Shown piece after piece: positions 3,886 to 38,551 of a stretch of DNA of 64,000 nt. The translations under genes were made by a program, and so were the position numbers. The stretch covers positions 1,184,001-1,248,000 of the forward strand of contig CAVOKF010000005.1 of the NCBI GenBank assembly GCA_963696385.1. The letters run 5' to 3'. This DNA is from an uncultured delta proteobacterium. Lineage in GTDB: Bacteria > Myxococcota_A > Polyangia > Polyangiales > Polyangiaceae. Each line of letters starts with the position of its first letter. Positions within the stretch are counted from its first letter, which is position 1. Below the pieces are notes generated by a model. The model was not told the DNA's origin and ran no database searches. It was given only the letters and a program-made list of their open reading frames with translations.

Positions 3886-3901
3886 TGGAGTTGCGCAGCG
3901 A

Positions 3902-5014: not shown

Positions 5015-5049
5015 GGGACGTTCACTTGGGTACCGGGCACCTACGGACC

Positions 5050-9627: not shown

Positions 9628-9898
9628 CGTACGCGCTGGCTCCTCGGCGCCGTAAGATCGACGCTTTTTACGCAATGCCCCGCGGGCCGCAAGGGATACG
9701 GCTGACTGTCTCGGCACGTCACACGGCGATCACGCGATCGCCACGCAGATGGGATGCGCCGCTCTCCCCGGGCTTCGAGTGGAGTATCCAAGGCTCGGTC
9801 TGCTTCCGTAAGAAATAGCGATGCTCGTCTCGAGACCCGAAAACCAGTAATCCTATTCGACATTTGCGTTGCCGCCACCGGCGAGGCTTTAAACAGAA

Positions 9899-11700: not shown

Positions 11701-11716
11701 TACAAGATGCGAGCCA
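11701..11716 (-). promoter_or_regulatory. Putative sigma-54 -24/-12 promoter (TGGCTCG-CATC-TTGTA)
   Basis: GG-N10-GT spacing (GT instead of canonical GC). The same CTTGTA variant occurs at 17503-17518. Lies 80 bp from the shared upstream box. Confidence 0.5.
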
Positions 11717-11928: not shown

Positions 11929-14900
11929 ATGCGACGGGGCGGAAGCTTCATAATCGGTCTCGTCGTCGCTCTCATCGCCGTCGCGAGTTGCGCACAGGAA
12001 GAGTATCCGGAGGCGTTGTGGTCGGCCCAGCATCCGGGCGCGACAGCAGCCGACGGGGGGGGCACGAGTGTCGCGGCCGCGCCCGCGGCTGGGCCGCTCG
12101 ATTGCCGCCAGGCCCAGGCGGAGTCGCTCCCCGCGCGGCTGGTCGCGATGTCGGCGAACGCGCCTCCGAGCGCCACGGTCGTTCTGGTGTCCGATCTCTA
12201 TCAGGAGTTCGTCGAAGTCTGTGGGGCGTGCCACGGCCCTTCGGTCGATCCTCCAGGCAATGGAGGATTCCAGATTATCCAGTCGACCGACTTTTCTTCC
12301 CTCATGACCGCATCGGTGCTCCAACACGTCACGAACTCGGTCTGTCCCACTGCAGAGGATCCCACCAATCCAAACGATCCCATGCCGCCCTGCGCGAGCC
12401 CGGACGGCGCAACCTATTCGCAAAGGCTGGATAGCGATCCCATCAAACAGTTTGCGGAACTGGTTGGAGAATGGTTGCAGGCCGGTAGCCCGAGCTCCTT
12501 CAGCCCCGGCGGCGATGCCGGCCCCGGCGGGGAAGCCGGTGCCGCCCAGGATGCGGGCGCCGCGAGCGCGTACGTCCTCACGCCGCAATCTGGAAACGCG
12601 ATGACCAACATCGGCAACTGCATCCCCAGTGCGGCGATGGTGGGCGTCGACGTTGAGAAAGCCACGGCGCTGGACGCGATGTTTGCAAGCCTGACTGCCC
12701 AGGCGAGCGGTTCGGCGTTGCAGGTGATCGGTCTTCCGCAGAACCTATCCGACACCGACCTATTTACTCTCGACAGCCAGGCCCTCGCCCAAGAGGGGGT
12801 TTTGGCGTACGCCCCCGGCTACCCGCTCTGGTCCGACAACGCCGGCAAATTGCGCCACGTACGGGTGCCGCACGGGCAGTCCATCCGCTTCAACAAGACG
12901 ACCCAGCAGTTCGAGATCCCGCCCAACACTCGATTTTACAAAACTTTTATGAAACAAATCATCGATACCGACGGCAGCTATCGGTACCGCAAAGTCGAGA
13001 CACGATTGATCGTCTCGCGCCCGGATCAGAACAACCCGGATGGAACCGCGGTGGCGCAGAAGGCGCTCTTCGGCAGCTACCTATGGAACGCCGACGAAAC
13101 CGAGGCAGTGCTCGTCCAAACGCCGCTGAACGATGGAGAACCGTTCGCGGACACGCTGTTGCTTTACAACACCGACGAGCCGTTGGCCGCGGACATCTTG
13201 TCCGGTCAGCCGGCCGACCCGCAAGAGCAGCTGCTCGAGAACGGGGCGGCACGTCATTACGCGATCCCATCGAGCCCGCGCTGCATCGAGTGCCACATGG
13301 GTAGCGCAAGCCAGGCCTTCGTGCTCGGCTTCACGCCGCTGCAGATCAACCGCCGGCCGGTCGGTGTCGGCGGGGTCATCGAGGCCACGGGCCCCGACGA
13401 GTTGACGCAGCTTCAGCGATTCATCGACGCCGGGATCATCACGGGCATCGATACGATCGCCGATGTTCTGCCGCTCGAGCAGTCGCAGGGCGCGCGCACG
13501 CCGCGCAACGAGTACGAGCTGACGGCTCAAGGCTACGTGCTCGGCAATTGCTCGCACTGCCACAATCCGCGCGGGTATCCCAGCGTCGAGAATCCTGTGC
13601 TGACGACCGTGCTCGATTTTCTTCCGGGGCCCAAGGGAGGCGTATTTCAGTTTCCCCTCGAGAGCTACAGCCCGCGTATCGGTCGGGGGCTCACGGGGAC
13701 GACGCCCATCCCGTACATCACGCCGTCACTCGTCGATCTCCCGAAGCTCGACCCCAATTCCGGCGGACAGGCCGCAGACTGGTTCGTCAGCGCAGGCGCG
13801 CAAGGGACGAACACGGTGGATTACGCAATCTACGCTCCTTGGCGAAGTATCATTTATCGCAACGTCGATGCGGCTTTTGCCTATACGGACGACTTCGCGC
13901 TGTTTCCGCATATGCCCATGAACACGCCGGGATACGATCCGCGCGCCAAACAGATCCTCGGCGACTGGATGGTCAGCATCCCCTCTGTGCGAAAGCAACC
14001 GGAGATTCCCGAGTACGCGTATCGGACCGACGGTTCCGCGTCGGACAACATCAACGGCCCCGTCGTGGACACGACGCCTCAACCGTATGTCGAAGTGCTT
14101 CCGGGGGCGCCGGCGTACAACAGCGCCGTCATCGCCGCGCAGCAGCGGTTGGCCATCCTTCATACGGGGGTCAACCAAGCGGTCGCGTTGGCGCCGGGCG
14201 GCGTCGTCTACTCGAAGTATGCGGATCGCGGTCAAACCGGTGACATCATCGATCCCGAGGTGACGGCGGACCCCATCTGCCACCCGATCCCCGTTGGCGA
14301 ACCGGACTTGTACTATACGCCGCTGCCCGAGCATCCGGACTGGGTGGTCACCGATCTCACCGAACCGCCCGGCGCGTGGGCGCCGAGGCAACCGAATTGG
14401 CCCCAAGTGTTGGTCGAGGGGCAGGTTCCTCCGCAGGGCACGGCGTGCACGGGACTGACCGGTGAGCAAGCCGCTTACGCCGACCAGATCGATGCCGTGC
14501 AATTGCTGCCGAGCGTCACCCTCGACCAAGTGCAAGCTTACGCGACGGCCAAACAGCCGTTCGGATTGTGGCAACAGCAGGCCTCGTGCAATTTCTCTTC
14601 GCAGCCTACGGTGAGCTCGTTCACCGGGGCCCAACGGCCGCATTGGATGGACGTCACGAATCCACCCCCGGACGCTCCCGTCTACATGGAGACACCCGGG
14701 GAGGCCATTTTCAAAATGATCTGCATCAACTGCCATGGTCCCGACGGCGCGGCGGACGGCCGAATGGCACAAAACCTCGCGACGATGACCGGTGGCAACG
14801 CGCGTGTCGCGGACTTTCGCGACGGTCTGTTTGGGCCGGTGGGTGCGGCGGAAGACATGAGCAATCGCCATGCGGTGTTCGGGATCACAGCCTTGCAAGC

Positions 14901-15762
14901 CGCCGTCCCGGACGCGTCCGCCAATTGGGTGGGAGACACGGATGCGGGGATTGCGGTGACCGACGACGATCGAGCTGCGCGGTACATGGCGTGGATGGGC
15001 CTCGGAGGCACGTCCGTGAACATCCCAGTCGCGATTCTGGAAATCGTGGCCATCACGCAGGTGCTCGACCAGGTGAGGACGCTCGCCGCTTCTTCCCTTT
15101 CGGCGAACATGCTGTCGGAGACGAAAGCGCTCTGCCTGGGCCTTTTTGGGCCCGGCTTCGCCGATGCCCAAAACGGCGAATTCTTCGACCCTACTCCGGG
15201 TCACGGGTATCTCGACGCCAAATTGACTCATTTGAACGACGCACTGATTCCTGAAAACGGCGACGCCGAGCTCTGGCTGAATCTCTGTTCGATGGCGAAT
15301 CCGGCGCCGGTTCATCTGCTTCAATTGGACCCGCACGGATTGCTCCAACTGACCGTCGCGCCGACCCAAGACTCTCAGTACGATCTCGAGATCCAGCCCC
15401 AGTCGCTTGTGGCGGCCGCCAATTACCCGGCGGGAGCTTCGGTCGGCGACGAAGGCGCGAACGTTCAGCCGAGCCTTCAACCCACGAATCTTTGGCCTTG
15501 GTGCGTCGACAACACGGCCGCCACGGCGGCTCAGTCCGAGTGGCTGCAATCGAATTCCATCCCGGTCTGTCCGGCGAGCGTCATCGCGGCGGGTCAGGGA
15601 TGTGCGGCGAACCCGACCGCGGCGTGCTTCGGCAACGACGCAGCCAATCAGTGGGCCGTTCGTGGCGCGATCAACGCCGGAATGTCCGTGTTTCTGTACC
15701 TCGAGTTCATCGAAAACTCCGGGCCGCCACCCGACTACAACCAGTGCAGTCTTCTGAACTGA
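11929..15762 (+). CDS. Large tetraheme c-type cytochrome lipoprotein with an SO2930-like diheme core
   Basis: GGAGG RBS and lipobox VASC. CxxCH motifs CGACH (12220), CIECH (13282), CSHCH (13549) and CINCH (14722). YPLWSDNAGKLR and VETRLIV motifs resemble SO2930-family cytochromes. Confidence 0.85.
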   Translation: MRRGGSFIIGLVVALIAVASCAQEEYPEALWSAQHPGATAADGGGTSVAAAPAAGPLDCRQAQAESLPARLVAMSANAPPSATVVLVSDLYQEFVEVCGACHGPSVDPPGNGGFQIIQSTDFSSLMTASVLQHVTNSVCPTAEDPTNPNDPMPPCASPDGATYSQRLDSDPIKQFAELVGEWLQAGSPSSFSPGGDAGPGGEAGAAQDAGAASAYVLTPQSGNAMTNIGNCIPSAAMVGVDVEKATALDAMFASLTAQASGSALQVIGLPQNLSDTDLFTLDSQALAQEGVLAYAPGYPLWSDNAGKLRHVRVPHGQSIRFNKTTQQFEIPPNTRFYKTFMKQIIDTDGSYRYRKVETRLIVSRPDQNNPDGTAVAQKALFGSYLWNADETEAVLVQTPLNDGEPFADTLLLYNTDEPLAADILSGQPADPQEQLLENGAARHYAIPSSPRCIECHMGSASQAFVLGFTPLQINRRPVGVGGVIEATGPDELTQLQRFIDAGIITGIDTIADVLPLEQSQGARTPRNEYELTAQGYVLGNCSHCHNPRGYPSVENPVLTTVLDFLPGPKGGVFQFPLESYSPRIGRGLTGTTPIPYITPSLVDLPKLDPNSGGQAADWFVSAGAQGTNTVDYAIYAPWRSIIYRNVDAAFAYTDDFALFPHMPMNTPGYDPRAKQILGDWMVSIPSVRKQPEIPEYAYRTDGSASDNINGPVVDTTPQPYVEVLPGAPAYNSAVIAAQQRLAILHTGVNQAVALAPGGVVYSKYADRGQTGDIIDPEVTADPICHPIPVGEPDLYYTPLPEHPDWVVTDLTEPPGAWAPRQPNWPQVLVEGQVPPQGTACTGLTGEQAAYADQIDAVQLLPSVTLDQVQAYATAKQPFGLWQQQASCNFSSQPTVSSFTGAQRPHWMDVTNPPPDAPVYMETPGEAIFKMICINCHGPDGAADGRMAQNLATMTGGNARVADFRDGLFGPVGAAEDMSNRHAVFGITALQAAVPDASANWVGDTDAGIAVTDDDRAARYMAWMGLGGTSVNIPVAILEIVAITQVLDQVRTLAASSLSANMLSETKALCLGLFGPGFADAQNGEFFDPTPGHGYLDAKLTHLNDALIPENGDAELWLNLCSMANPAPVHLLQLDPHGLLQLTVAPTQDSQYDLEIQPQSLVAAANYPAGASVGDEGANVQPSLQPTNLWPWCVDNTAATAAQSEWLQSNSIPVCPASVIAAGQGCAANPTAACFGNDAANQWAVRGAINAGMSVFLYLEFIENSGPPPDYNQCSLLN

Positions 15763-15806
15763 AGGGGCGACCTCTTCGGCCGCTCGGCGGGAGCCTGGCG
15801 CAGCGG

Positions 15807-17102
15807 GTGCTTCAGCGTGGCCTGGTGGTGCTGTGGTTGGGCATCATTCCAGCGTTATTGACGGGCCTCGTGCTGCGCTTTTTGGTGCCGTGGCGCGGAG
15901 AAGGACTGCTCGGCGTGGCGGCCATGCTCGGGCGTCAGTATTCGCCGTACTTGGCCGCAGCCCTTTTCCTGTTGTTTGGCGCTCTTGTGCGATATTGGCG
16001 TTATGACTGGCCCGGCGCGCGCTACACGCTGAATCTGCCGCCGGGCGTGGCTTCCGGCGAACGAGCGCGAGAGCGGCTGGCCGAGTGGGCGGGCGATACG
16101 GCGATTTACGAATGGCTGAGGTCGCGTAGGACGCGGCTGTACCGAACGCTCGATCGGGAAAAGAGAATCGAGGTCGAACGCCGACTCGGCGAACTGCGGG
16201 CGGGCCTGGAAACCAGGGACATCGAACGCACGCGCACGGCTCGTGCAGCCCTCGAGGCGATCGCCGCCGCCCTGTTGGTCCGGTATCGTCGACGCCGGTT
16301 TCTGACGACGGTCCTGACCGTTCCCGCGGTCGCTTTTGCGGTTCTTGCGGTTCGCGCTGGCATCGCCGAGCCGTATCGGGTGCTCAGCACGTCGATGTTG
16401 CCGACGCTCGAGCCGGGCGATCGCATCCTGGGCAATAAGCTTGCGGTTGCATGGGAGTCCGACAGGGTGCCCCGCCGCGGCGACACGGTCGTGTTTCGCG
16501 CCTCGGCCCTCTCGTTGGGGGCCGAGAGCGCCCACGTCCCCGACGTTCTCGTCAAGCGCGTCATCGGCCTACCGGGAGACCGGATCACCATGCGGGGCAG
16601 CGTGCCGGTCATCAACGATTGGCTGGTGCCGACGTGCGACGCGGGCGATTACCTGTACCTGCTCCCCGATGCATCGGGGAACGCGCTTCGCGGCCGAGTG
16701 TACGTCGAGTTTCTCGACGACCGGGCGTACCTGACCGTCCACTCCATCCAAGCCGCGTTTCCGGAGCCGTACCGGGTCAAGCCGGGCGAAGTCTTCGTGC
16801 TCGGAGACGATCGCAGCAATAGCCTCGATTCCCGCGCGTACAACGATGGGCATGGAGGCGGCGTGCCACTGCAGGCGCTGCAAGCGCGCGCCCAGTGGTT
16901 TCTCGTGGGGACGCATCGGTCCGGCGACGCCGACTGGGGACGATGGTTCGCCCCGATCGACCGGCTGCAAGCTCGATTGCGCCTCGAAGGATTGGACACG
17001 GGCATGCTGCAGTCCGGCATCCTCCGATGCCTGCAAAGTCGACCGACGCAGACGCATCCGCCCGCCCAGCCGTCCAGCGGCAGCGGCAGTCCGGGCCCAT
17101 GA
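15807..17102 (+). CDS. lepB: Signal peptidase I (S26) with extended membrane N-terminus
   Basis: Box B STSMLPTL (catalytic Ser), box D VKRVIGLPGD (Lys), box E VLGDDRSNSLDSR. Three hydrophobic segments upstream. Start uncertain (GTG 15807 chosen). Confidence 0.9.
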   Translation: MLQRGLVVLWLGIIPALLTGLVLRFLVPWRGEGLLGVAAMLGRQYSPYLAAALFLLFGALVRYWRYDWPGARYTLNLPPGVASGERARERLAEWAGDTAIYEWLRSRRTRLYRTLDREKRIEVERRLGELRAGLETRDIERTRTARAALEAIAAALLVRYRRRRFLTTVLTVPAVAFAVLAVRAGIAEPYRVLSTSMLPTLEPGDRILGNKLAVAWESDRVPRRGDTVVFRASALSLGAESAHVPDVLVKRVIGLPGDRITMRGSVPVINDWLVPTCDAGDYLYLLPDASGNALRGRVYVEFLDDRAYLTVHSIQAAFPEPYRVKPGEVFVLGDDRSNSLDSRAYNDGHGGGVPLQALQARAQWFLVGTHRSGDADWGRWFAPIDRLQARLRLEGLDTGMLQSGILRCLQSRPTQTHPPAQPSSGSGSPGP

Positions 17103-17502: not shown

Positions 17503-17518
17503 TGGTCCGGTCCTTGTA
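17503..17518 (+). promoter_or_regulatory. Putative sigma-54 -24/-12 promoter (TGGTCCG-GTCC-TTGTA)
   Basis: GG-N10-GT, ~80 bp upstream of ATG 17599 and ~100 bp downstream of the shared box. Confidence 0.5.
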
Positions 17519-17598: not shown

Positions 17599-20292
17599 AT
17601 GAACAAATCGATAGCGATCGCCACGTGTCTGGTGGTCGGCGCAGGCGTGACGGCCGCGGGGGCACTGACCGTGCCTAGCAAGTACTACGGCTCGGACACG
17701 CTCGAAAACGTCACGAAAGACGCCATTACGAACGCAACCGGCTTGGGCTCTGGCCAGGCCGGTAACTACCTCGCGGGCGGATCCGGAGCGGGTCAGGGCG
17801 CCATGGCGGCGAGCAGTTTGCTTGCGGCCACGCAGCAGACTGCGCCGATGAGTAAGATGCTGACGAACGGCGTTTGCAACAAGCTGGGGGGGACGAACGG
17901 CTCGGCGGCGACCAACGCGAACGGCATCGTCATCGGCATGGACGCGGTCGACATTCTGGCGTCGTCGACGATTCCCGCCATTACCAACGGCGGACGGGCA
18001 GTATGCAGTGATTCGTCCCTCGCCGACCAGAACGCGCAAGAGCCGAATGGTCTTGCCTACAGTGGGTCGATCGCGGCGGGTGTGCCGTTCGCCAACGCCG
18101 CCGGGAACACGCAAAATTGGAAGTGGACGCTGGCGCTTCTTTACGGAGGACTCGACTTGTCGGCCCCGGCGGGCACTCTTCCGAACTGCCTCAGCACGGC
18201 GCGGGCCGATTTGGTCAACAACTGGAGCCTCTTATTTCAGAACAACAGCACGTGCACCAACGGGTCGGCCAACGCCGAAGTCTGCGGTGACTCGGTTCAC
18301 CTCGCGGCGGGCGACGGGACGCACGTACCGCTGATGCATGCCTTTCGACGCGACGATGCGTCGGGTACATCCGATGTCTTTTCGTCGCTCATCGGCTTGC
18401 AAGTGCTCATGCCGTCGCCGTCGGCGTCTTCCAACAACGGATTCGGCGCGAGTCCCTACTGCAACGCCCTCAACTGGGACACGAACGTCAACAACAACAA
18501 CGGCGGGTTCTGCGGCGGTGCAATCCTCGCTACGGGTCCAAACTCAGGGAATCTGACTTTCGGCCCCGACGACCAATTCGTCGGTCCAGGCGGTGTGCCC
18601 GATACGAATTCAAATTGCACATTCGTGTCGTTCGCGAGCAGCGCCGTCAGTGGCACCGAGAGCTGCCCTGGAAATGCAGGTACGGGCCCTCTACCTGGAG
18701 GTTTAGGAGGTGGAAATCATCGCATGCCGCCGCCGGGCACGTGGGGCAGTTCCAGCCCTGGCGTCGTCGCGGGTCCGGCCATCACCGGCAATCCGAGCAA
18801 CTTCGACGTCTTGCCCACGAGCTTCCAGGACAACGACCCGATCCGGCGCACCTGTATCGGCACGATCTCCGGCGGCCAGACCACCAACGTCCTTGCGTCG
18901 AGCGAGCAGGTTTGCAACCTCGACGGCAAGCTCGGCCTGGTTCTCGCCATCCCGGCTTCGGACTTCATTACGAGCCAGACCAACCCCGCCGGCACGCCCG
19001 AGGTGCAGTACCCGACGGCGGCCTGCACGGGTGCGCAGCGGCTCGGCAAGCCGGTGAACGTCCTCAATTGCGCTCCCTTCCAATCGGCGACGCACGCGGG
19101 AGAGTGTCCCGACGGCGACGGACTGATTGGAACGAGTTGCGAAGTCCCGATCGCGACCTCGCCGCTGACCTCGCAGTGCATCGCATCCAAAACGGTCTCG
19201 GTCGTCTCGCACAAGCGGTCGCTCGGCTCGCCCGATGGCCGTGTCTACAACCTGTTCATGCGGGACGGAACGACCACGGACGGCTCGATCACCTACATTG
19301 AAGAGAGCATCCAAAATGGCACGAGCTCCCCGCCGACCGTCGACTTCATCGGCGGAATGGGAACCATCCACAGCATCGCGACGGTGTGGAACGACGGCAA
19401 CGTGCCAAGCACGGTCACGCTGGCGCTGACTTCGCCGCCGAACGTCGGCTGCCAAATGGTGGATGCGACCGATCAGATCGCATGCCTCGTGCAGGCCGAC
19501 CCGTGCAGCCTCGGGTACGCGGGCGACGGTGGAAAGTCGTGGAACACGCGCCAGAACGGAGTCGTGTGCCAGACCCTCGCGGCTCAGGGTATCTGCGCCG
19601 GCACCGGCACCAACGGAACCCAACCGCCCTACTCCACGAGCTCAGCTCTCGCGCCGTTCGTCTGTCCGGCTCAATGCATCGGCAGCGGCTTGGCGGGCCC
19701 GCAGAGCACCGACTCGCTCCGAATCGACCAGACGTATCCGACCGAGACGACCGTCACGAATCTCGGCTCGCAAAGCGTCGAGTACCAGATCGCGCGCAAG
19801 CTCTACTTCAACTCTCTGGTTGGTTTCTCAGGCATTACGGCCGGTACCGGCGCGTATGCTGACACGGCCACGGGAGAGCTGACGCTGGCCCAATACGAGG
19901 CCAACAATCCGTCGACGCAAATCAATCCGATCCTCACGAGCGTCGGCTACTTCGCGCTCGGTGGCCAGACCAACTCCACTTACAACGCGCCGTTCTGCGA
20001 GGACTTCAACGAGGCGCTCGTCTGCGGATTTGCGACGAACACCAACGGCTGCACCGGCAACGCGGGAAATAACTCCGTTCTTGGAGTTCCGGTCGATCTG
20101 CCAAGCCAGGGGTCCATCTGCGGCAACGGCATTCAAGAGCCCTACGAGGAATGCGACAACGGGACTCCAGACTTGGCCGGGGCGGTCAACGGTGGCAATG
20201 GCTCGTCGGGCAACAATTGCTCGACCATCTGCCGATGCTCCGGCACGACGTCATACGAGAACATCGGGGGGACTGGCTACAAGTGCCAGTGA
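17599..20292 (+). CDS. Secreted Cys-rich protein on a PstS/PBP-like scaffold with C-terminal myxococcal Cys-rich repeat (paralog 1)
   Basis: GGAGG RBS and signal peptide AGA|L. PstS-like motifs GSDTL, GGSGAG, RRDDASGTSDVF and YQIARKLYF. CGNGIQEPYEECDNG repeat at the C-terminus. Confidence 0.8.
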   Translation: MNKSIAIATCLVVGAGVTAAGALTVPSKYYGSDTLENVTKDAITNATGLGSGQAGNYLAGGSGAGQGAMAASSLLAATQQTAPMSKMLTNGVCNKLGGTNGSAATNANGIVIGMDAVDILASSTIPAITNGGRAVCSDSSLADQNAQEPNGLAYSGSIAAGVPFANAAGNTQNWKWTLALLYGGLDLSAPAGTLPNCLSTARADLVNNWSLLFQNNSTCTNGSANAEVCGDSVHLAAGDGTHVPLMHAFRRDDASGTSDVFSSLIGLQVLMPSPSASSNNGFGASPYCNALNWDTNVNNNNGGFCGGAILATGPNSGNLTFGPDDQFVGPGGVPDTNSNCTFVSFASSAVSGTESCPGNAGTGPLPGGLGGGNHRMPPPGTWGSSSPGVVAGPAITGNPSNFDVLPTSFQDNDPIRRTCIGTISGGQTTNVLASSEQVCNLDGKLGLVLAIPASDFITSQTNPAGTPEVQYPTAACTGAQRLGKPVNVLNCAPFQSATHAGECPDGDGLIGTSCEVPIATSPLTSQCIASKTVSVVSHKRSLGSPDGRVYNLFMRDGTTTDGSITYIEESIQNGTSSPPTVDFIGGMGTIHSIATVWNDGNVPSTVTLALTSPPNVGCQMVDATDQIACLVQADPCSLGYAGDGGKSWNTRQNGVVCQTLAAQGICAGTGTNGTQPPYSTSSALAPFVCPAQCIGSGLAGPQSTDSLRIDQTYPTETTVTNLGSQSVEYQIARKLYFNSLVGFSGITAGTGAYADTATGELTLAQYEANNPSTQINPILTSVGYFALGGQTNSTYNAPFCEDFNEALVCGFATNTNGCTGNAGNNSVLGVPVDLPSQGSICGNGIQEPYEECDNGTPDLAGAVNGGNGSSGNNCSTICRCSGTTSYENIGGTGYKCQ

Positions 20293-20345
20293 CGAGAAGG
20301 AGACGTCGCCGCTAGACTCGTCGTCTAAGCGAACGGCAACAGGCG

Positions 20346-20379
20346 AAAAGGCGCACCCCAGCGATGGGGTGCGCCTTTT
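20346..20379. terminator. Bidirectional Rho-independent terminator between convergent paralogs 1 and 2
   Basis: AAAAGGCGCACCCCA-GCGA-TGGGGTGCGCCTTTT perfect hairpin with A and T tails. Confidence 0.9.
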
Positions 20380-20473
20380 TCGTATCGATCACCTTGCTAA
20401 AGCAGCGTTCCGAATCATGGAACGGCGCTTTAGGCCAGCCGAAGGCGCTGGCCCTGGTTGCCCCACGGACCCC

Positions 20474-23116
20474 TCACTGGCATTTGAAGCCTGTTCCCCC
20501 GACGTTCTCGTACGAGAAAATGGGGGCGCATCGGCAGGTGTTGGTGCAGTTGTTGCCTGATGCGCCGTTGCCGCCGTTCACGGCGGCTCCGGTGCCGCTC
20601 GTGACGCCCGGAGTGCCATTGTCGCATTCCTCGTAGGGCTCTTGAATGCCGTTTCCGCAGATGGACCCCTGGCTCGGTAGATCGACGGCAACACCAAGAA
20701 CGGCGTTGCTTCCGGCGTTGGTGAGGCAGCCGTTGACGTTGGACGCTGTCCCGCCCGCGCCGGCTGCGGATCCGCAGATGAGCTCCTCGTTGAAGTCTTC
20801 GCAGAACGGCGTGTTGTAGGGCGCCGTAGCCGCGGAAGGCAGCGTGAAGAAACCGACGGTTGTGAGAATGGGGTTGATCTGGGTCGTCGGATTGTTGGCC
20901 TCGTATTGGGCTAGCGTCAGCTCGCCCGTGGCCGTGTCCGTCTGACTGGAAGTCCCGGCGGTAATCGCCGAGAAGCCAACCAGAGAGTTGAAATAAAGCT
21001 TTCGCGCAATCTGGTACTCGACGTTTTGCGAGCCGAGATCCGTGACGGTCGTCTCGGTCGGATACGTCTGGTCGATTCGGATCGAATCGGTGCTTTGGGG
21101 GCCAGCGATACCGGTCCCAAGGCACTGCGCCGGGCAGACGAACGGCGCGAGGGCGGCGCTCGTGGAGTAGGGCGGTTGGTCCCCATTGGTGCCGGTGCCG
21201 GCGCAGACGCCCTGATCCGCGAGGGTCTGGCACACGATTCCGTTCTGGCGCGTGTTCCACGTTTTGCCGTTGTCGGCGGCAAAGCCGAAGCTGCAGGGGT
21301 CGGCCTGCACCAAGCAGCCGATCTGATCGTCGGCGACGACCATTTGGCAGCCGACGTTCGGCGGGCCGGAGGTAACGACGAGTGCAGCATTGCTCGCGAC
21401 GCTGCCGTCGTTCCAGACGGTTTCGACCGTGTGGATGCGACCCATACCGCCCGCGAAGTCGATGACGACCGGGGTGCTCGTGCCGTTTTGGAGGGTCTGC
21501 TTGATGTAGGCGATCGACCCGTCCACCGTGTCTCCGTCGCGCATGAACAGGTTGTAGATGCGCCCGTCGGGCGAGTTGAGCGTTCGCTTGTGCGACACGA
21601 CGGAGACGGTCTTGGACGCGATGCACTGGGACGTGAGCGGCGAGGTCGCGATCGGGACTTCACAGCTCGTGCCAATCAGTCCGTCGCCGTCGGGACACTC
21701 TCCCGCGTGCGTGGCCGATTGGAAGGGACCGCAATTGAGGACGTTCACCGGTTTGCCGAGCCGCTGCGCACCGGTGCAAGCCGCCGTCGGGTATTGAACC
21801 ATCCCCGCGGGTGAGGTGATCGTCGGAATGAAGTCCGAGGCCGGAATGGCAAGAACGACGCCGAGCTTGCCGTCGAGATTGCAAACTTCCTCGCCGGACG
21901 CGAGGGCATTGCCCGTTTGGCCGCCCGAGATCGTTCCGATGCAGGTGCGCCGGATCGGATCGTTGTCTTGGAAGCTCGTGGGCAAGACGTCGAAGTTGCT
22001 CGGATTGCCGGTGATGGCGGGCGCGTTGCCCCAGGTGCCGGGCGGCGGCATGCGGTGGTTTCCACCTCCGCCCGACACGGCGCACGTCTCGGCGGTATTG
22101 ACGGCGCTGGTCGCGAACGACTTGAACGTGCACAGCGAATTCGGATCGGGCACGCCGCCGGGACCCACGAATTGGTCGTCGCCTCCGAAGGTCAAATTGC
22201 CCAAGCTATTGACCACTCCGCCGCAGAACCCACCGTTGTTGTTGGCGACGTTGGTGTCCCAGTTGAGGACGTTGCAGTACGGGCTCGTGCCGAATCCGTT
22301 GTTGGCCGACGCCGACACGCCCGGCATGAGCACTTGCAAGCCGATGAGCGATGAAAAGACATCGCCCGTGCCCGCCAAATCGTCGCGCCGAAAGGCGTGC
22401 ATCAGCGGTACATGCGTCCCGTCGCCGGCCGCAACGTGAACCGAGTCGCCGCAGACTTCGGCGTTGGCCGACCCGTTGCTGCACGTGCTGCTGTTCTGAA
22501 ACAAGAGGCTCCAGTTATTGACCAATGCGGCCCGCGCCGTGCTGGCGCAATCCGGGAGGGTGCCCGCGGGGGCCGACAGGTCGAGGCCTCCGTAGAGAAG
22601 CGCCAGCGCCCACTTCCAGTTCTGCGTGTTGCCGGCGGTGTTGGCGAACGGCACACCCGCCGCCGTCGTCCCGCTGTAGGCAAGGCCGCTTGGATCTTGT
22701 CCATTCTGGTTGGACGAGTTGCTGCATGTCGACGTGGCCGGAATCGTCGACGACGCCAGGATGTCGACCGCGTCCATGCCGATGACGATGCCGCTCGCGT
22801 TGGTCGCGGCCGAGCCGTTGGTTCCCCCGAGCTTGTTGCACACGCTGCTGTTGAGCATTTTCGTCATCGGCGCCGTCTGCTGCGTCGAGGCCTTGACGGT
22901 GCTTGTCGCCATCGCCGATTGGCCCGCGGCCGACCCGCCCGCGACATAGCTACTGGCCTGGGTGGAGCCCAAAGCGGGCGCGGCCGAAATGGCATCCTTC
23001 GTGACGTTGGTGAGCGTGTCCGAGCCGAAGTACGGGGCCGGCACGGTTAGCGCCCCCACGGCCGTGATGCCCGATCCGACCACCAGGCCGGTGGCGATCG
23101 CTATCGATGTTCTCAT
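20474..23116 (-). CDS. Secreted Cys-rich PstS/PBP-like protein (paralog 2)
   Basis: Colinear with paralog 1. Motifs GSDTL, GGSAAG, RRDDLAGTGDVF and YQIARKLYF. Ends GFKCQ. Confidence 0.8.
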   Translation of the reverse strand: MRTSIAIATGLVVGSGITAVGALTVPAPYFGSDTLTNVTKDAISAAPALGSTQASSYVAGGSAAGQSAMATSTVKASTQQTAPMTKMLNSSVCNKLGGTNGSAATNASGIVIGMDAVDILASSTIPATSTCSNSSNQNGQDPSGLAYSGTTAAGVPFANTAGNTQNWKWALALLYGGLDLSAPAGTLPDCASTARAALVNNWSLLFQNSSTCSNGSANAEVCGDSVHVAAGDGTHVPLMHAFRRDDLAGTGDVFSSLIGLQVLMPGVSASANNGFGTSPYCNVLNWDTNVANNNGGFCGGVVNSLGNLTFGGDDQFVGPGGVPDPNSLCTFKSFATSAVNTAETCAVSGGGGNHRMPPPGTWGNAPAITGNPSNFDVLPTSFQDNDPIRRTCIGTISGGQTGNALASGEEVCNLDGKLGVVLAIPASDFIPTITSPAGMVQYPTAACTGAQRLGKPVNVLNCGPFQSATHAGECPDGDGLIGTSCEVPIATSPLTSQCIASKTVSVVSHKRTLNSPDGRIYNLFMRDGDTVDGSIAYIKQTLQNGTSTPVVIDFAGGMGRIHTVETVWNDGSVASNAALVVTSGPPNVGCQMVVADDQIGCLVQADPCSFGFAADNGKTWNTRQNGIVCQTLADQGVCAGTGTNGDQPPYSTSAALAPFVCPAQCLGTGIAGPQSTDSIRIDQTYPTETTVTDLGSQNVEYQIARKLYFNSLVGFSAITAGTSSQTDTATGELTLAQYEANNPTTQINPILTTVGFFTLPSAATAPYNTPFCEDFNEELICGSAAGAGGTASNVNGCLTNAGSNAVLGVAVDLPSQGSICGNGIQEPYEECDNGTPGVTSGTGAAVNGGNGASGNNCTNTCRCAPIFSYENVGGTGFKCQ

Positions 23117-23343
23117 TTCCGAAATTCTCCGATTGCAGTTCCGACGCACTTGCCCGACCGACCGATTTCGGAATGGGCCAGCCGACTATGTCGGGCTGCG
23201 GATGTGTCCGCAATCGTAGACTTTACGATTCCGCAACGAACGGCGCACGATTGTGCAACGCACGGCAACGGGACGGCCTCCATGCCGTGACGCGCCGACC
23301 GGACGGCGAAGGAGGCCCGCGGGCGAGCGCACAAAATGAAAGA

Positions 23344-23375
23344 AGAGGCGCATCCCACGAAGGGGATGCGCCTCT
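23344..23375 (-). terminator. Terminator hairpin after paralog 3
   Basis: AGAGGCGCATCCC-ACGAAG-GGGATGCGCCTCT 13-bp stem followed on the minus strand by TCTTTCATTTT. Confidence 0.8.
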
Positions 23376-23436
23376 CTCGATTGAGGCTCTCGTTATTCGT
23401 TCGCGGTCTGGCTTGCGGGTCCGGTGAGGCCGGCTC

Positions 23437-26130
23437 TCACTGGCACTTGAAGCCCGTGCCGGTGTTTTCGTAAGAGAACGTGCCTGCGCAGCGGCAGATG
23501 GTCGAGCAATTGTTGCCCGATCCGCCGTTGCCACCGTTGACGGCGGTTCCGGTTCCGCTCGTGACGCCGGGGGTGCCGTTGTCGCATTCCTCATAGGGCT
23601 CTTGAATGCCGTTGCCGCAGATCGACCCTGTGCTCGGCAGGCCGACGGCGACTCCGAGAGTGGCGTTGTTTCCCGCGTTGCCGGGGCACGCGTCGACGTT
23701 GGACGCCGTCCCGCCCGCGCCGGCCGCGGCTCCGCAGACCAGCTCCTCGTTGAAGTCCTCGCAGAACGGCGCGTTGTACGGGGCTGTAGCGGCGGAAGGC
23801 AGTGTGAAGTAGCCGACGCTCGTGAGAATCGAGTTGATCACGGGGACGCCGCTGACGACCGAGGCCTCGTATTGGGCCAAGGTGAGCTCGCCGGTGGCCG
23901 TGTCCGTCTGACCCGAAGTCCCGGCGGTAATGGCCGAGAAGCCCACAAGAGAGTTGAAGTAGAGCTTGCGCGCGATCTGGTACTCCACGGTTTGCGAGCC
24001 GAGATCGGTCACGGTCGTTTCGGTCGGATACGTCTGGTCGATCCGGAGCGAGTCCGTGCTTTGGGGGCCGGCTAAGCCGCTGCCGATGCATTGCGCCGGA
24101 CACACGAACGGCGCGAGGGCTGAGCTCGTGGAGTAGGGCGGTTGGGTTCCATTGGTGCCGCTGCCGGCGCAGACGCCTTGGGCCGCGAGGGTCTGGCAGA
24201 CGATTCCGTTCTGGCGTGTGCTCCACGACTTGCCGCCGTCGGCTGCATACCCGAAGCTGCAGGGGTCGGCTTGGACCAAGCACCCCACCTGATCGTCGGC
24301 GGAGACCATCTGGCAGCCGACGTTCGGCGGCGAAGTCAGCGCCAGCGTGGCATTGCTCGCCACGTTGCCGTCGTTCCACACCGTCGCGATGGTGTGGATG
24401 GTTCCCATTCCGCCGATGAAGTCGACGGTCGGCGGCGAACTTGTGCCATTTTGGATCGTCTGTTCGATGTAGGTGATCGATCCGTCCGTGGTCGTTCCGT
24501 CCCGCATGAACAGGTTGTAGACGCGCCCATCGGGCGAGCCGAGCGTCCGCTTGTGCGAGACGACCGAGACCGTCTTGGATGCGATGCACTGCGAGGTCAG
24601 CGGAGAGGTCGCGATCGGGACTTCGCAACTCGTTCCAATCAGTCCGTCGCCGTCGGGACACTCTCCCGCGTGCGTCGCCGATTGGAAGGGACCGCAATTG
24701 AGGACGTTCACCGGCTTGCCGAGCCGCTGCGCACCCGTGCAGGCCACTGTCGGGTATTGAACCTCCGGCGTGCCAGCGGGGTTGGTCTGGCTCGAGATGA
24801 AGTCCGAAGTGGGGACAGCGAGGACGACTCCGAGTTTTCCGTCGAGGTTGCAAACTTGCTCGCCCGATGCAAGGACGTTGGTCGTCTGGCCTCCGGAGAT
24901 CGTTCCGATGCAGGTGCGCCGGATCGGGTCGTTGTCCTGGAAGCCGGTGGGCAGCACATCGAAGTTGCTGGGATTGCCGGTGATGGCCGGAGTGTTGCCC
25001 CACGTGCCCGGCGGCGGCATGCGGTGATTTCCACCGCCGCCCGTCGTGTTGCATGTTTCGGTACCACTGACGGCGCTGCTCGCGAACGACTTGAACGTGC
25101 ACAGCGAATTCGGGTCGATGACACCGCCGGGGCCGACGAATTGGTCGTCGGGGCCGAAAGTCAGATTGCCCAGGCTATTGAGCTGTCCGCCGCAGAACCC
25201 ACCGTTGTTGTTGTTGACGTTCGTGTCCCAGTTGAGGGCGTTGCAGTAAGGACTCGCGCCGAATCCGTTGTTGGATGAAGCCGATGGCGACGGCATGAGC
25301 ACCTGCAAGCCGATGAGCGACGAGAAGACGTCGGATGTGCCGGACGAGTCGTCACGCCGGAATGCGTGCATCAGCGGTACGTGCGTTCCGTCGCCCGCAG
25401 CAACGTGAACCGAGTCGCCGCAGACGTCGGCGTTGTTGCCGGATGGCGCGGCGGGAGAGGCCGTCCCGTTGCTGCACGTGCTGCTATTTTGAAATAACAG
25501 ACTCCAATTGTTGACCAGAGCCGCGCGCACCGAGCTGCTGCAGTCCGGAAGCGTGCCCGCTGGGGCCGACAGGTCGAGGCCTCCGTAGAGAAGCGCGAGC
25601 GTCCACTTCCAGTTCTGCGTGTTGCCCGCGGTGTTGGCGAACGGCACGCCCGCCGCAATCGAGCCGCTGTAGGCAAGACCGTTCGCTTCCTGCGCGTTCT
25701 GGTCGGCGACGGACGAATCACTGCAGACAGCCTGCCCGCCGTTGGTAATGGCCGGGATCGTCGACGACGCCAGAATGTCGACCGCGTCCATGCCGATGAC
25801 GATGCCGCTCGCGTTGGTCGCGGCCGAGCCGTTCGTCCCCCCGATCTTGTTGCACACCCCATTCGTCAGCATTTTCGTCATGGGCGCGGTCTGCTGCGTG
25901 GAGGCCTTCACCGAACTGGCCGCCATGGCCGACTGACCGGCGCCAGAGCCGCCGGCGAGGTAGTTCGCTTCCTGGCTGGAGCCCAACCCCGGTGCAGCCA
26001 GAATGGCATCCCGAGTGACGTAAAGAAGTGAATCCGACCCGTAGTACGCCGTAGGCAAGGTCAGTGCCCCTGCGGCCGTAATGCCCGCGCCGACCACCAA
26101 GCCGGTGGCGATCGCTATAGATTTTCTCAT
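23437..26130 (-). CDS. Secreted Cys-rich PstS/PBP-like protein (paralog 3)
   Basis: GGAGG RBS. Motifs GSDSL, GGSGAG, RRDDSSGTSDVF and YQIARKLYF. Ends GFKCQ. Confidence 0.8.
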   Translation of the reverse strand: MRKSIAIATGLVVGAGITAAGALTLPTAYYGSDSLLYVTRDAILAAPGLGSSQEANYLAGGSGAGQSAMAASSVKASTQQTAPMTKMLTNGVCNKIGGTNGSAATNASGIVIGMDAVDILASSTIPAITNGGQAVCSDSSVADQNAQEANGLAYSGSIAAGVPFANTAGNTQNWKWTLALLYGGLDLSAPAGTLPDCSSSVRAALVNNWSLLFQNSSTCSNGTASPAAPSGNNADVCGDSVHVAAGDGTHVPLMHAFRRDDSSGTSDVFSSLIGLQVLMPSPSASSNNGFGASPYCNALNWDTNVNNNNGGFCGGQLNSLGNLTFGPDDQFVGPGGVIDPNSLCTFKSFASSAVSGTETCNTTGGGGNHRMPPPGTWGNTPAITGNPSNFDVLPTGFQDNDPIRRTCIGTISGGQTTNVLASGEQVCNLDGKLGVVLAVPTSDFISSQTNPAGTPEVQYPTVACTGAQRLGKPVNVLNCGPFQSATHAGECPDGDGLIGTSCEVPIATSPLTSQCIASKTVSVVSHKRTLGSPDGRVYNLFMRDGTTTDGSITYIEQTIQNGTSSPPTVDFIGGMGTIHTIATVWNDGNVASNATLALTSPPNVGCQMVSADDQVGCLVQADPCSFGYAADGGKSWSTRQNGIVCQTLAAQGVCAGSGTNGTQPPYSTSSALAPFVCPAQCIGSGLAGPQSTDSLRIDQTYPTETTVTDLGSQTVEYQIARKLYFNSLVGFSAITAGTSGQTDTATGELTLAQYEASVVSGVPVINSILTSVGYFTLPSAATAPYNAPFCEDFNEELVCGAAAGAGGTASNVDACPGNAGNNATLGVAVGLPSTGSICGNGIQEPYEECDNGTPGVTSGTGTAVNGGNGGSGNNCSTICRCAGTFSYENTGTGFKCQ

Positions 26131-26598: not shown

Positions 26599-28125
26599 TT
26601 ACGCGATTTTCGGCGTCAAGCGGCGCCGCAGCAAGGCCCTGCCTGCGATACCGGCCCCCCCAAGGAACAAGGCAATCGCGACGAAAACGAGAACCATCCG
26701 CAGTCGATGCCTCTTCTCGGTGGCCAGCGTGGCTTGCTTCATGAGGTCGACCGAGAGGCCGACGGATCTCGCGCGATCCAAAAGCTTGTTCGCAACCTCG
26801 AATTGGCCCTCCTGCATCGCGAGCGCCCATTGATAGGTGAGCGTCTTCCGGTCATCGGGAGCCCGCGCCGAGAGCGCAGCGGTGCATTCTCGGAGCTCCG
26901 CAACGTTCGACGTGCGAGTGCCGACCTCGCATTCGAGCTCCGCGCTCGCCTCGCGGCCTTCAGGGTCTTCCTGCATGTGGCGGATCACTTGCTTGAGCGC
27001 CGCGGTTTCTTTTTGACTGAGCGGTCCGGGCTTGGCGAGTGTCAACTGGACGAAGCGCGTATAGTCTCGGACTTTGGCTCCGTCGCGGAGCAACGCTTCG
27101 CCGCAACTATTCACGGCATGGTCGTGATCTCCCAGAGCCTCGTATTCCTCGCACAACTTCGCGTACGAAACCGCACGGTCGGGCACGGTCTGGGCGAGCG
27201 CCTTGTAATATCGGACGGCGGCCGCGTGGTCTCCGGCTTTGGTGGCCCGCTCGGCTTTCAGCGCGAGGTCTTGAAGCCAATAGCCAAATTGCAAAGGATC
27301 CGAATTGCGGGTCTTCTCGTCGGGAATGCTATTTTCGGGATGAGCATCGTCGATAGGCCAACGACTGAGCCAGCCGCCGCGCGGAAGCTCGTCGGCTCGC
27401 GCCGTGCCCGAGATCGCGCAAAAAATGAGCACCCCTAGAGCCGCCGCCGCGCGTCTGCCGGACCCGTGCGTGAGGCGGCGGAGGACCGCATGGGCCACCG
27501 TGACGGCGACGGCCGTCGCGATGGACAACCACCCTGCCCAGAAGCGCCAGGGAGGGCAGCGCGAGTCGATCAGCGAAACGATGCGGCGCGTCTGAGGGTC
27601 GGACGGAGCGAGCCGCTCCAATTTTTCGGCACATGCTTGCAACATGAGTCCATCTCCAATGCTTTCGGCGATATCGCAGGCCATCGCCGTCGGCGTCGGC
27701 GCGCCCGGAGAATTGTGGTTTTCCGTAGAGGTGATGGAAAGGGCCAGGTTAATCTGTGCGACCGTCGGTGCGGTCGGGCCATCGACAAATGCGCGGACGA
27801 GGGCCCGGATGTTGGGATTGGTGTGTCGCCCGGCGAGCGCTTGAGAGCAGGCGTCGATCGCGTCGTTGCGGCGGCCCAAGACGACCAGCGCTTCGCACTC
27901 GCGACGCCGCGGCAGCGCAGCGTGCGGCAGCTCGGCCTGCGTCTGGCGAAAGAGCGCGTAGGCGGCCTCCATGTCACCTGTGAAACCCAGCGCTTCACCT
28001 TTCTCGAGCAGATCCGCGGCATGAGGGTTCCGGCGCTTCATGGAGTCCATCTCGGCTTGGTCCCAAGAATCTCGCGCGATCGCCGCGCTTGCCGTGAACG
28101 GAACGAAGAGCGCGAGGAGCCCCAT
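26599..28125 (-). CDS. Membrane-anchored two-module TPR protein
   Basis: Two TPR-like helical regions separated by TM + Arg-rich loop + signal-like segment. C-terminal TM followed by LLRRR. Start uncertain. Confidence 0.7.
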   Translation of the reverse strand: MGLLALFVPFTASAAIARDSWDQAEMDSMKRRNPHAADLLEKGEALGFTGDMEAAYALFRQTQAELPHAALPRRRECEALVVLGRRNDAIDACSQALAGRHTNPNIRALVRAFVDGPTAPTVAQINLALSITSTENHNSPGAPTPTAMACDIAESIGDGLMLQACAEKLERLAPSDPQTRRIVSLIDSRCPPWRFWAGWLSIATAVAVTVAHAVLRRLTHGSGRRAAAALGVLIFCAISGTARADELPRGGWLSRWPIDDAHPENSIPDEKTRNSDPLQFGYWLQDLALKAERATKAGDHAAAVRYYKALAQTVPDRAVSYAKLCEEYEALGDHDHAVNSCGEALLRDGAKVRDYTRFVQLTLAKPGPLSQKETAALKQVIRHMQEDPEGREASAELECEVGTRTSNVAELRECTAALSARAPDDRKTLTYQWALAMQEGQFEVANKLLDRARSVGLSVDLMKQATLATEKRHRLRMVLVFVAIALFLGGAGIAGRALLRRRLTPKIA

Positions 28126-28144
28126 GAAAAGGACTGCCTGTATA

Positions 28145-29350
28145 TCACTGCAAGCAGGTCGTGCACCCATTGCCCTGCGCGCAATTGAGGATTTGGTTCG
28201 CGATTCCGGACGGATTCGATCCGGTCGTATCGGTGTAGTTGTTGATGATGTCGTTCGCGTCCGACTGCGGGAAGGTGAAACCAGCGACCTCGGCCATCAA
28301 GCACGGCCCGTCGACGCTCGCGCCGTTGGACGAGCAGGTGGTTGGACCGAGGCCGGCGAATCCGCCCGTGCCGCAATAGCAGAATGTCTCGCCCTGAGCA
28401 TTGGCGGCGCACTGCTGCCCGGTCGGACCCAGCACGCACAGTAGCGCGCCAATGCAGGCCGAAACGCTGCCGACGCTGGCTCCGCTGCCGTTCGTGAATG
28501 TGGCCGACGTCATGCTAAATGTCGGGGTTCCAATATCGTCGCACTCGCGATTCTTGATGCCGTGCTGGGGATTGTCGACGCATGAGCTAGCGACGAGGCA
28601 GCTGAAGCAACTGCCGGTCGAACTCGGCGAACCAGCGTAGTCCGGTCCGCTGCCGGTGACCGCGCCCGCGCCGATGTCGAGCGCAACGAACGCGGCCTCG
28701 GTCTCGGTGCAGACACCGCTGCTGCGGTTCGGGCAGCTCACGCAGTTCGTTTGGCCGGCCGACGTGCAGGGCACGAGAGATCCCGCCTCGCTCGTCCCGC
28801 TCGGGCCTGTTTCGCTCGCGCTCGCGTCGGTCGCCCCGGTTTCGGGGGCGCCCTCGCTGGCCGCAGAGTCGGGCGAAGGCGTCGCCCCAACGTCGATCGT
28901 GCCGTCGGAAAGCGTCGAATCCATTTCCCCATCGGAGATCGCGGAGTCGCTGGTGGCATCTTCACCGCCGGCCTCCCGTAGCCCCGCATCGCGCGCGCCG
29001 GCATCGGGGATCGCCATCTCTTCGACCGTCGCGTCTTCGCGAGATGCGTTCGGAGAGCCGTCCGGCTCGGCGCTCATTGCGGGATTCGTGGTCGCCGCTG
29101 CGGCGCCCTCGTTCTGCGCGCCGGTTGCGTCTTGCCCGGACGCCGCGGTCGCCGCGTCCAACGCGCTCACCGCGCCGGCGCCGGACGACCCGTCATCGGA
29201 CTCGCCAGTATCGGAATTGCCCGGCAGGGCCGAGCTGTCGCCGACGTCACTGCAGCCGCCGGTCGCCGTCGCCATCACGAGCGCCGCCATGAATCCGCCA
29301 AGGCTCGTGTGCCACGAACGCGGTGCCACGGAGGATTGCGTGTGACTCAC
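28145..29350 (-). CDS. Lipoprotein-like protein: acidic low-complexity stalk plus shared Cys-rich C-terminal domain
   Basis: GTGA overlap with the upstream stop, TGGC lipobox-like motif, C-terminal domain ending CTTCLQ closely similar to those of the 5050 and 9963 genes. Confidence 0.8.
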   Translation of the reverse strand: MSHTQSSVAPRSWHTSLGGFMAALVMATATGGCSDVGDSSALPGNSDTGESDDGSSGAGAVSALDAATAASGQDATGAQNEGAAAATTNPAMSAEPDGSPNASREDATVEEMAIPDAGARDAGLREAGGEDATSDSAISDGEMDSTLSDGTIDVGATPSPDSAASEGAPETGATDASASETGPSGTSEAGSLVPCTSAGQTNCVSCPNRSSGVCTETEAAFVALDIGAGAVTGSGPDYAGSPSSTGSCFSCLVASSCVDNPQHGIKNRECDDIGTPTFSMTSATFTNGSGASVGSVSACIGALLCVLGPTGQQCAANAQGETFCYCGTGGFAGLGPTTCSSNGASVDGPCLMAEVAGFTFPQSDANDIINNYTDTTGSNPSGIANQILNCAQGNGCTTCLQ

Positions 29351-33452: not shown

Positions 33453-33813
33453 GCGAAGTCTTCCTCGACCGTGCGCAGGAGCGCGCCGCGATCGAGGCCC
33501 CTTGTACCGAAGTATCGGCGGGCCGATTGCCACGACTGCGAAACATTCCGAAGGCTCGTTGGATCCTATGGAAATCGCCTGGAAAATCGAACCTTTCGCA
33601 TGCAATCTTCCGCAGATTGCTGCGCGGTGAGTCGACGGATCGCTCGGGTGCGAACGGGATTGCCGGTGCGACGGTCGTCGTGGAACCCCCCGAGCTTCGA
33701 GCGACGCGAAACGTCACAAACTGTTCACGCGCCCCCCGCGCCGGCACGCCTAGCCTCGCGCGCTCGTGCGCACTTCCGAGGGCCATGACACGGCGAGAGG
33801 GTCGGGCCTGTCG

Positions 33814-38511: not shown

Positions 38512-38551
38512 GCCAGCACCATTTCTACCCTGCCGCGGCACGGCGAGCCTC

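Follow-up and report, generated by a model that had tools for sequence, protein, structure and literature searches.

A PstS-Fold Protein Family Tied Genomically to a Tetraheme Cytochrome c in Polyangia

Results

Three Large, Cysteine-Rich Paralogs Share a Locus with a Tetraheme Cytochrome

We analyzed a 64,000-nucleotide stretch of the genome of an uncultured member of the Polyangiaceae (contig CAVOKF010000005.1, positions 1,184,001 to 1,248,000; hereafter the window), in which three genes encode large, cysteine-rich paralogs of a protein family that carries motifs of PstS, the phosphate-binding protein of the Pst transporter. The three genes and their core partner, a tetraheme cytochrome gene, are arranged as follows (ORF, open reading frame; aa, amino acids; ligand residues in paralog 1 numbering):

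17599-20292, plus strand: paralog 1, 897 aa; intact ORF, all eight scored ligand positions kept
20474-23116, minus strand: paralog 2, 880 aa; intact ORF, six of eight ligand positions kept (S85T, S255A)
23437-26130, minus strand: paralog 3, 897 aa; intact ORF, six of eight ligand positions kept, both changes conservative (T34S, S85T)
11929-15762, plus strand: tetraheme c-type cytochrome, 1277 aa, lipobox-like N terminus; CxxCH motifs at 98, 452, 541, and 932

The paralogs are 80-87% identical to one another over aligned residues, and the 6.9-Mb genome holds no further copies of the family. Their closest named relatives come from metagenome-assembled genomes (MAGs) of Polyangiaceae/Myxococcales, the top one at 92%. 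An earlier note on this DNA had described PstS motifs in the right order, hundreds of residues apart, and capped with a C-terminal CGNG...EECD repeat. The order holds in all three paralogs, but the exact set quoted occurs only in paralog 1 (GSDTL at position 31, GGSGAG at 60, QQTAPMSK at 79, RRDDASGTSDVF at 250, and YQIARKLYF at 729); paralog 2 has the variants GGSAAG, QQTAPMTK, and RRDDLAGTGDVF, and paralog 3 has GSDSL, QQTAPMTK, and RRDDSSGTSDVF. As to spacing, the first three motifs are clustered, and the long gaps run from 86 to 250 and from 261 to 729. The C-terminal motif is present at position 841 of paralog 1 (CGNGIQEPYEECD), but the TIGR02232 model, whose cut-off is passed by homologs P0009 and P0020, gives paralog 1 no score. 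Cysteine makes up 3.6-3.7% of the paralogs, each of which has 32 cysteines beyond position 22.

The Paralogs Are Predicted to Adopt a PstS Fold

Single-sequence searches of the paralogs against Pfam, NCBIfam, and the PDB gave no match, and neither did a profile of close homologs (A1) against the PDB. We found 254 homologs among 8000 scored candidates and 424 representatives at 50% identity; a phylum-wide search, in which two candidates per genome were scored, placed the family in 2 of 401 genomes. Members form a size series of 270, 300, 380, 420, 580, 700, and 900 aa, and the shorter ones (270-420 aa) bridge the paralogs to PstS by sequence. A profile of 51 diverse members matches PstS structures (E 5e-7), a compact 49-member profile matches 4omb (E 5e-25), and a 423-aa member connects to ~270-aa PstS-like proteins (E 5e-20). 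The ESM Atlas returned clusters of the family itself, one PF12849 lead at 0.89, and SO2930-type neighbors. A set of Cys-poor, ~270-aa PstS-like proteins (P0339, P0345-P0354, and P0357) has the GSDT and RR(D/N)DxSGT motifs in common with the family.

The AlphaFold model of paralog 1 (P0001; pLDDT 84, pTM 0.90) superposes on Vibrio cholerae PstS (1twy) over 243 of 244 residues (VIA Z 14.7, rmsd 2.7 Å, model residues 24-787). PstS proteins of the TIGR02136 type score Z 13-15 against this model, E. coli PstS scores ~11.9, and DING proteins score 8.6-9.1, at rank 30 and below. Foldseek with the full model returned only E > 0.07, yet the top ten hits are all phosphate-binding proteins. The 423-aa member reaches E 1e-10 in Foldseek, and its top 13 matches among 48,161 chains are phosphate-binding proteins (Z 21.8-16.2), followed by the next at Z 12.9. 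Both predicted models thus show the type II periplasmic binding protein fold that had been proposed for these proteins, and the full-length superposition suggests that the motifs converge on one cleft. The biggest insertion in paralog 1 is predicted to occupy the second lobe (~266-622), after the RRDDxSGT helix, and a Cys-rich tail is predicted as well.

The paralogs resemble PstS proteins of the TIGR02136/PF12849 type (P. aeruginosa 4omb, V. cholerae 1twy, and C. perfringens 4q8r/4gd5) in their predicted near-whole-chain fold, in the GSDT, GS, PMS, R-x3-SGT, and YP..R.LY motifs, and in a Ser-type pocket. Unlike these proteins, they are ~3 times longer, contain 32 cysteines, are linked to a tetraheme cytochrome and a signal peptidase rather than to pstCAB, and fall below the model cut-offs. 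DING proteins (PfluDING, HPBP) combine a phosphate-binding fold outside the standard transporter with a non-transport role, and we know of no cytochrome link for them. The suggested comparison with DING proteins proved wrong, and we rejected membership in that group: they score Z ~9 against 13-15 for TIGR02136-type PstS, and the family has a serine (Ser85) at the selectivity position where, according to PMC5381212, DING proteins use an aspartate in a low-barrier hydrogen bond.

The Family Is Separated from the Pst Transporter

As the earlier note had stated, the window contains no pstCAB; its sole ABC ATPase match (45368-47005) sits in an ABC_transp_aux/DUF4340 operon. The genome's own pstB-pstS-pstC-pstA-phoU operon, accompanied by a sensor kinase, lies on another contig (C8) and encodes a PstS of 303 aa. 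Across 115 loci, pstC was never found near the family gene or the cytochrome (0 of 23 family-anchored loci, 0 of 72 cytochrome-anchored loci, and 0 of 20 genome regions), and pstA/pstB was found near either in a single locus. In all five other genomes inspected, pstC lies at least 0.19 Mb from the family gene or on another contig. The absence of a permease link, as first suggested, is borne out by gene context. TIGR02136 and PF12849 do not match the three paralogs; short members pass PF12849, and all tested members fall below the TIGR02136 cut-off. On the pstC counts, the separate operon, and this cut-off, we rejected an ordinary Pst transporter subunit.

The family could still be an orphan solute-binding protein, that is, a high-capacity phosphate scavenger feeding a PstCAB encoded elsewhere, with an incidental link to the cytochrome. 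Its intact pocket is compatible with such a role, pstC is present in five of five genomes tested and in the source genome, and some sources automatically name members phosphate ABC substrate-binding proteins. The pst operon already has its own PstS, however, the scores below the TIGR02136 cut-off count against it, and the 22-of-22 cytochrome linkage described below would go unexplained, which makes this alternative very unlikely.

Even the Smallest Members Are Tied to a Tetraheme Cytochrome

The earlier note overlooked the dominant genomic context: family genes keep company with a tetraheme cytochrome c gene, and this holds down to the smallest forms (300-380 aa). Of 23 family-anchored loci, 19 have the cytochrome, and in this set genes for an S26 signal peptidase, a tetratricopeptide repeat (TPR) protein, and a lipoprotein occur in 16 each. 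Conversely, 37 of 72 cytochrome-anchored metagenome loci contain a family gene, including all 22 with at least 5 kb of downstream sequence, and so do 18 of 20 genome regions with the cytochrome. Among 301 genomes (apparently one draw), 41 carry the family, 46 carry a full cytochrome (not counting one unpublished genome), and 39 carry both; two of seven cytochrome-only genomes have a short family form beside the cytochrome. These linkage counts are descriptive because kin are not independent.

Short forms of 300-390 aa lie directly upstream of a tetraheme cytochrome in four of five regions and 4.5 kb from it in the fifth. Four complete genomes of 12-14 Mb pair a ~380-aa lipoprotein form with a ~980-aa tetraheme cytochrome and lack the S26 gene, genome G636 has a 304-aa form, and a similar short protein is named from Sorangium. 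The core therefore consists of two genes. We hold with high confidence that the family combines a non-transport PstS fold with a cytochrome linkage.

The partner cytochrome contains an SO2930-like region (TIGR03806, E 1e-28 to 2e-31, below the cut-off) with many invariant polar and aromatic residues, and its profile finds only generic heme c motifs in the PDB. It shares this region with the diheme cytochromes SO2930/HNE_0200 but has four hemes and 900-1300 aa. Outside the CxxCH motifs there are enough invariant or near-invariant Met/His residues to cap all four hemes, and these may be the distal heme ligands; Met ligation implies higher heme potentials. Elsewhere (G000:C1:116528-124104), a cluster of multiheme cytochrome ORFs has up to 18 CxxCH motifs, and the genome has 13 reading frames with at least three. 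In the lineage of the 420-aa form, the gene immediately after the cytochrome encodes a type I phosphodiesterase/nucleotide pyrophosphatase (L021:12448-15399; also L023 and L148).

The Phosphate Pocket Is Widely Retained and the Paralogs Are under Purifying Selection

The phosphate ligands of C. perfringens PBP-1, as given in PMC5381212, are S11/T12/S13/S41/S59/R125/S129/G130/T131. By profile alignment and spacing, these map to S32/D33/T34/S62/S85/R251/S255/G256/T257 of paralog 1, which is predicted to keep the whole phosphate pocket. From 455 sequences collected, 353 cover the motifs and 314 are left at 90% identity; when eight positions were scored, all eight ligand residues were kept in 240 of the 314 members (18/28 short or partial, 63/72 medium, and 159/214 long). 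Each of 10 multi-copy loci keeps one intact-pocket copy; in four lineages the additional copies include degenerate ones.

In the window, the ligand-binding contrast drawn earlier between paralogs 1/3 and paralog 2 stands in part: paralog 2 loses a hydroxyl (S255A), but paralog 3 is not identical to paralog 1 (T34S, S85T). Comparison with orthologs gave dN/dS of 0.12-0.19 (0.19 for paralog 2 and 0.12 for paralog 3), and comparison between paralogs gave 0.17-0.29. Purifying selection therefore acts on all three paralogs while they differ at ligand positions, in keeping with the earlier suggestion that they diverge in ligand binding. The low dN/dS indicates that paralog 2 is maintained; given this value and its intact ORF, we rejected the possibility of a pseudogene.

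The same pocket might instead hold a redox-active oxyanion or phospho-compound (phosphite, arsenate/arsenite, or an organophosphate) for delivery to a periplasmic heme enzyme, with the SO2930-like domain turning the substrate over. Such a function would suit the two-gene core, the invariant polar and aromatic residues of the SO2930-like region, and the phosphodiesterase gene that follows the cytochrome in two lineages. It would also suit the serine at the position of the E. coli selectivity aspartate; sites of this kind reportedly discriminate arsenate less well (PMC5381212). Yet no arsenic or phosphite gene was found among the neighbors scanned, a Met/His complement sufficient to cap four hemes better fits a relay than an open active site, and neither the 600-residue insertion nor the duplications would be explained. 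We regard substrate delivery to a heme enzyme as improbable.

A Signal Peptidase and Surface Protein Genes Accompany the Core

Several further features of the window flank or interleave the core genes:

15759-17102, plus strand: paralog of signal peptidase I (S26) that has the Ser and Lys motifs; start placed only to within ~20 codons
9963-11615, minus strand: Cys-rich lipoprotein-like gene, divergent from the cytochrome, with a shared ~210-aa C-terminal domain
5050-9717, minus strand: Ig-like repeat (choice-of-anchor D) protein, 1555 aa, ending in the shared ~210-aa C-terminal domain
26599-28170, minus strand: TPR protein with hydrophobic segments, 523 aa; cluster-conserved, single copy in the genome
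28145-30414, minus strand: pair of Cys-rich lipoprotein-like genes (407 and 355 aa), both with the shared ~210-aa C-terminal domain, to which the second has a weak match
30369-32255, minus strand: TPR-GT41 glycosyltransferase
20346-20380, no strand assigned: inverted repeat bordered by runs of A and T where paralogs 1 and 2 converge, a likely bidirectional terminator
23343-23376, minus strand: terminator-like hairpin between paralogs 3 and 2

Besides the 16 family-anchored loci with an S26 gene, one more has it within the cytochrome frame (L015:4801-9750, a single 1649-aa frame that is either a fusion or a sequencing error), and the gene is found in none of four regions with lipoprotein-type forms. 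The window peptidase scores 87 bits against TIGR02227 (SPase I) and 13 bits against the SipW/archaeal type. It is likely to be dedicated to the cluster, a reading that is drawn from its position, since a second close homolog sits among housekeeping genes (G000:C5:403729-405201).

These neighbors bring to mind a structural polymer, in which the paralogs would be abundant building blocks of a coat, lattice, or filament at the cell surface, comparable to TasA and SipW, with the pocket secondary and the cytochrome serving as an anchor or maturation enzyme. An adjacent signal peptidase is also found in the Bacillus tapA-sipW-tasA operon, where a secreted protein is encoded beside an S26 peptidase (PMC9245690). 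The unusually conserved, Gly/Ala-rich signal sequence of the family, a Shine-Dalgarno-like motif in 59 of 69 family gene upstream regions, the 32 cysteines, and degenerate paralogs held under purifying selection (dN/dS 0.12-0.29) all speak for this reading, as do the GT41 gene, which adjoins the cluster in 11 of 64 loci, and the Ig-repeat protein that bears the C-terminal domain of the cluster. On the other side, TasA is a jelly-roll whereas the family core is a predicted type II periplasmic binding protein, and the window peptidase is of the SPase I type; the pocket is complete in most members, with an intact copy in every multi-copy locus; and the smallest forms have few cysteines and no peptidase, yet keep the cytochrome. 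We judge a structural polymer unlikely, though a serious contender; a part in adhesion or structure alone, as raised in the earlier note, thus competes with the reading that we favor.

Other genes in the window are less closely connected to the core. A run of surface genes (1277-9717, minus strand) comprises a DUF4397 lipoprotein and an M10/myxosortase-type metalloprotease together with the Ig-repeat protein of 1555 aa. DUF4397 proteins are likewise encoded after the cytochrome in short-form genomes, without detectable direct similarity to the one in the window. A Cys-containing, secreted-type gene (33766-35101, plus strand) carries a one-base frameshift near 34698-34700; its homolog in locus L008 (231-1754) is intact and ~70% identical, further homologs occur in the genome, and no relation to the PstS-fold family was detectable. 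Prim-Pol, resolvase/recombinase, and tyrosine integrase genes at 55844-61523 likely mark an integrated mobile element.

Putative Sigma54-Type Promoters Precede Paralog 1 and the Divergent Lipoprotein Gene

Three regulatory features bear on expression of the cluster:

17503-17518, plus strand: sigma54-type -24/-12 motif (GG-N10-GT), ~95 bp upstream of paralog 1
11701-11716, minus strand: sigma54-type motif, ~100 bp upstream of the divergent lipoprotein gene
32343-33605, minus strand: sigma54 enhancer-binding protein, a candidate activator (the genome has 42 such genes)

Within the window such a motif is confined to paralog 1 and the lipoprotein gene; none was found upstream of paralogs 2 and 3. 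Of 69 family genes, 47 are preceded by the motif YGGYCCGRTCCTTGTW, in most cases 80-105 bp from the start (antisense, 1); among divergent lipoprotein genes, 9 of 18 are preceded by it (antisense, 0). The motif fits the spacing of the sigma54 consensus, TGGCACG-4N-TTGC(T/A) in PMC7910581, with GT in place of GC. A strict sigma54 pattern matched only 3 of 76 upstream regions, and the shuffle contrast of the relaxed pattern is inflated because the pattern was derived afterward from the same data. The real support for a promoter comes from the way the sites cluster by position, with 44 of them between -125 and -60, and from the lipoprotein gene test, both of which point to a putative sigma54-type element. 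An (A/G)AATCG element that recurs 107-109 and 127-130 bp upstream of the motif (e.g., at ~17397 in the window) is a candidate activator site.

In one wetland metatranscriptome (X1, word share 0.14), near-identical contigs match paralog 1 as well as the divergent lipoprotein gene (the 8 longest of 24 pieces). Contigs of X1 are few on a control stretch, cannot rank expression, and may include DNA carry-over; that they leave the cytochrome, paralog 2, and paralog 3 uncovered carries no information.

Regulators also recur nearby (enhancer-binding proteins in 14 of 64 loci, OmpR/PhoB-like regulators in 6 of 64). They could be the recipients of a signal if the family were a sensor that changes shape with phosphate occupancy and relays this through the TPR membrane protein or the cytochrome. 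A PstS-like domain fused to a Ser/Thr kinase elsewhere in the genome offers a precedent for sensing. The cluster has no conserved histidine kinase, however, and a dedicated peptidase and gene amplification would be unusual for a sensor, so that we think a sensory role highly improbable. The kinase fusion itself (L004:4588-7089, on G000 contig C1) ends in a C-terminal region that is OmpA-like by sequence inspection.

A Putative Heme-Porin Is a Loosely Linked Accessory

Two loosely linked accessory genes lie further from the core:

37954-38628, minus strand: single-heme protein
38552-39775, minus strand: heme-porin-like protein, 407 aa, with an N-terminal CxxCH and a porin-like C terminus

The CxxCH of the heme-porin is invariant in 18 of 18 sequences, and the barrel is judged from sequence only, as is the resemblance to Cyc2-type cytochrome-porins, which likewise have an N-terminal CxxCH followed by a porin-like region (~400 aa in total). 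Unlike in Cyc2 and porin-cytochrome conduits, the heme-porin gene is not obligatory here, and our literature search found no described conduit with a PstS-fold protein. Deltaproteobacterial Cyc2 sequences exist, according to PMC12442345. Nine contigs of at least 10 kb have identical sizes among the 67 family and 50 porin records, which suggests further shared contigs. A second heme-porin-like gene (G000:C7:813156-824661) is accompanied by small heme lipoproteins and an SO2930-like cytochrome, with no PstS-fold gene.

Discussion

We tentatively favor the view that the family provides an envelope electron-transfer module of Polyangia, likely tied to iron-phosphate chemistry, with an exported subunit that holds phosphate, and that duplicated copies drift toward a scaffold role; this is possible rather than established. 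Phosphate would be held for an electron-transfer system, not imported, because the genes adjoin a four-heme cytochrome and not a phosphate pump. Physical association, a surface location, the direction of electron flow, and the link to iron are inferred. A sigma54-type promoter would transcribe paralog 1, which would be exported by Sec, cut by the adjacent signal peptidase, and stabilized by as many as 16 disulfides; the GT41 enzyme might also glycosylate it. Paralog 1 would then act with the lipoprotein cytochrome at the envelope, with the heme-porin spanning the outer membrane in some lineages. The conserved Met residues suggest high-potential hemes and thus an inward flow of electrons from an outside donor such as Fe(II). 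The pocket would hold phosphate that is otherwise sequestered by iron minerals, and duplicates that lose the pocket would retain a scaffold role.

Several findings weigh against this view. Binding may be dispensable, given that 74 of 314 members lack at least one ligand residue and that the site is degenerate in 11 of the 58 loci with a single copy. The heme-porin occurs in only 4 of 23, 8 of 21, and 3 of 20 loci, is absent from five short-form regions, and has a second genome copy with no PstS-like neighbor. Nor was there evidence for its homology to Cyc2: among the matches listed (120 of 1618), all that carry a name are hypothetical proteins. A strong cytochrome match is missing in two family-bearing genomes, and related genomes are not independent samples. 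PHO boxes are not enriched upstream of the family genes (1 of 69 against 0.74 in shuffled sequence), by a pattern that also missed the genome's own pst operon. Finally, the link to iron is an ecological argument, since phosphate is not redox-active.

A bolder version of the favored view, which we consider speculative and unlikely, is a surface redox apparatus: a receptor of an ABC phosphate transporter would have been captured by a tetraheme cytochrome, grown from 300 to 900 residues, gained a signal peptidase, and been split by duplication into subunits that bind and subunits that do not. These would co-assemble as a phosphate-loaded coat wired through the heme-porin, thereby coupling iron redox to phosphorus capture. 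The short-to-long direction of growth is itself an assumption here because the core-domain tree, in which two outgroups fell apart, could not be rooted.

Solute-binding proteins freed from their transporters are known. We came across no report of such a protein being fixed to a multiheme cytochrome throughout a bacterial family and still keeping its pocket. The literature searched, with subscription papers and supplements outside its scope, likewise contained no description of the family or of its pairing with the cytochrome; supplements of MAG papers could list the proteins. What we describe is thus a known fold in an undescribed system. The size series shows how a transport fold has been rebuilt through insertion, and the linkage provides a first functional handle on SO2930-type cytochromes. 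Genetic and biochemical work is within reach, since cultured Sorangium has a short form on record. Should the iron-phosphate reading prove correct, the family would connect the cycles of iron and phosphorus in uncultured Polyangia in a way not recognized before.

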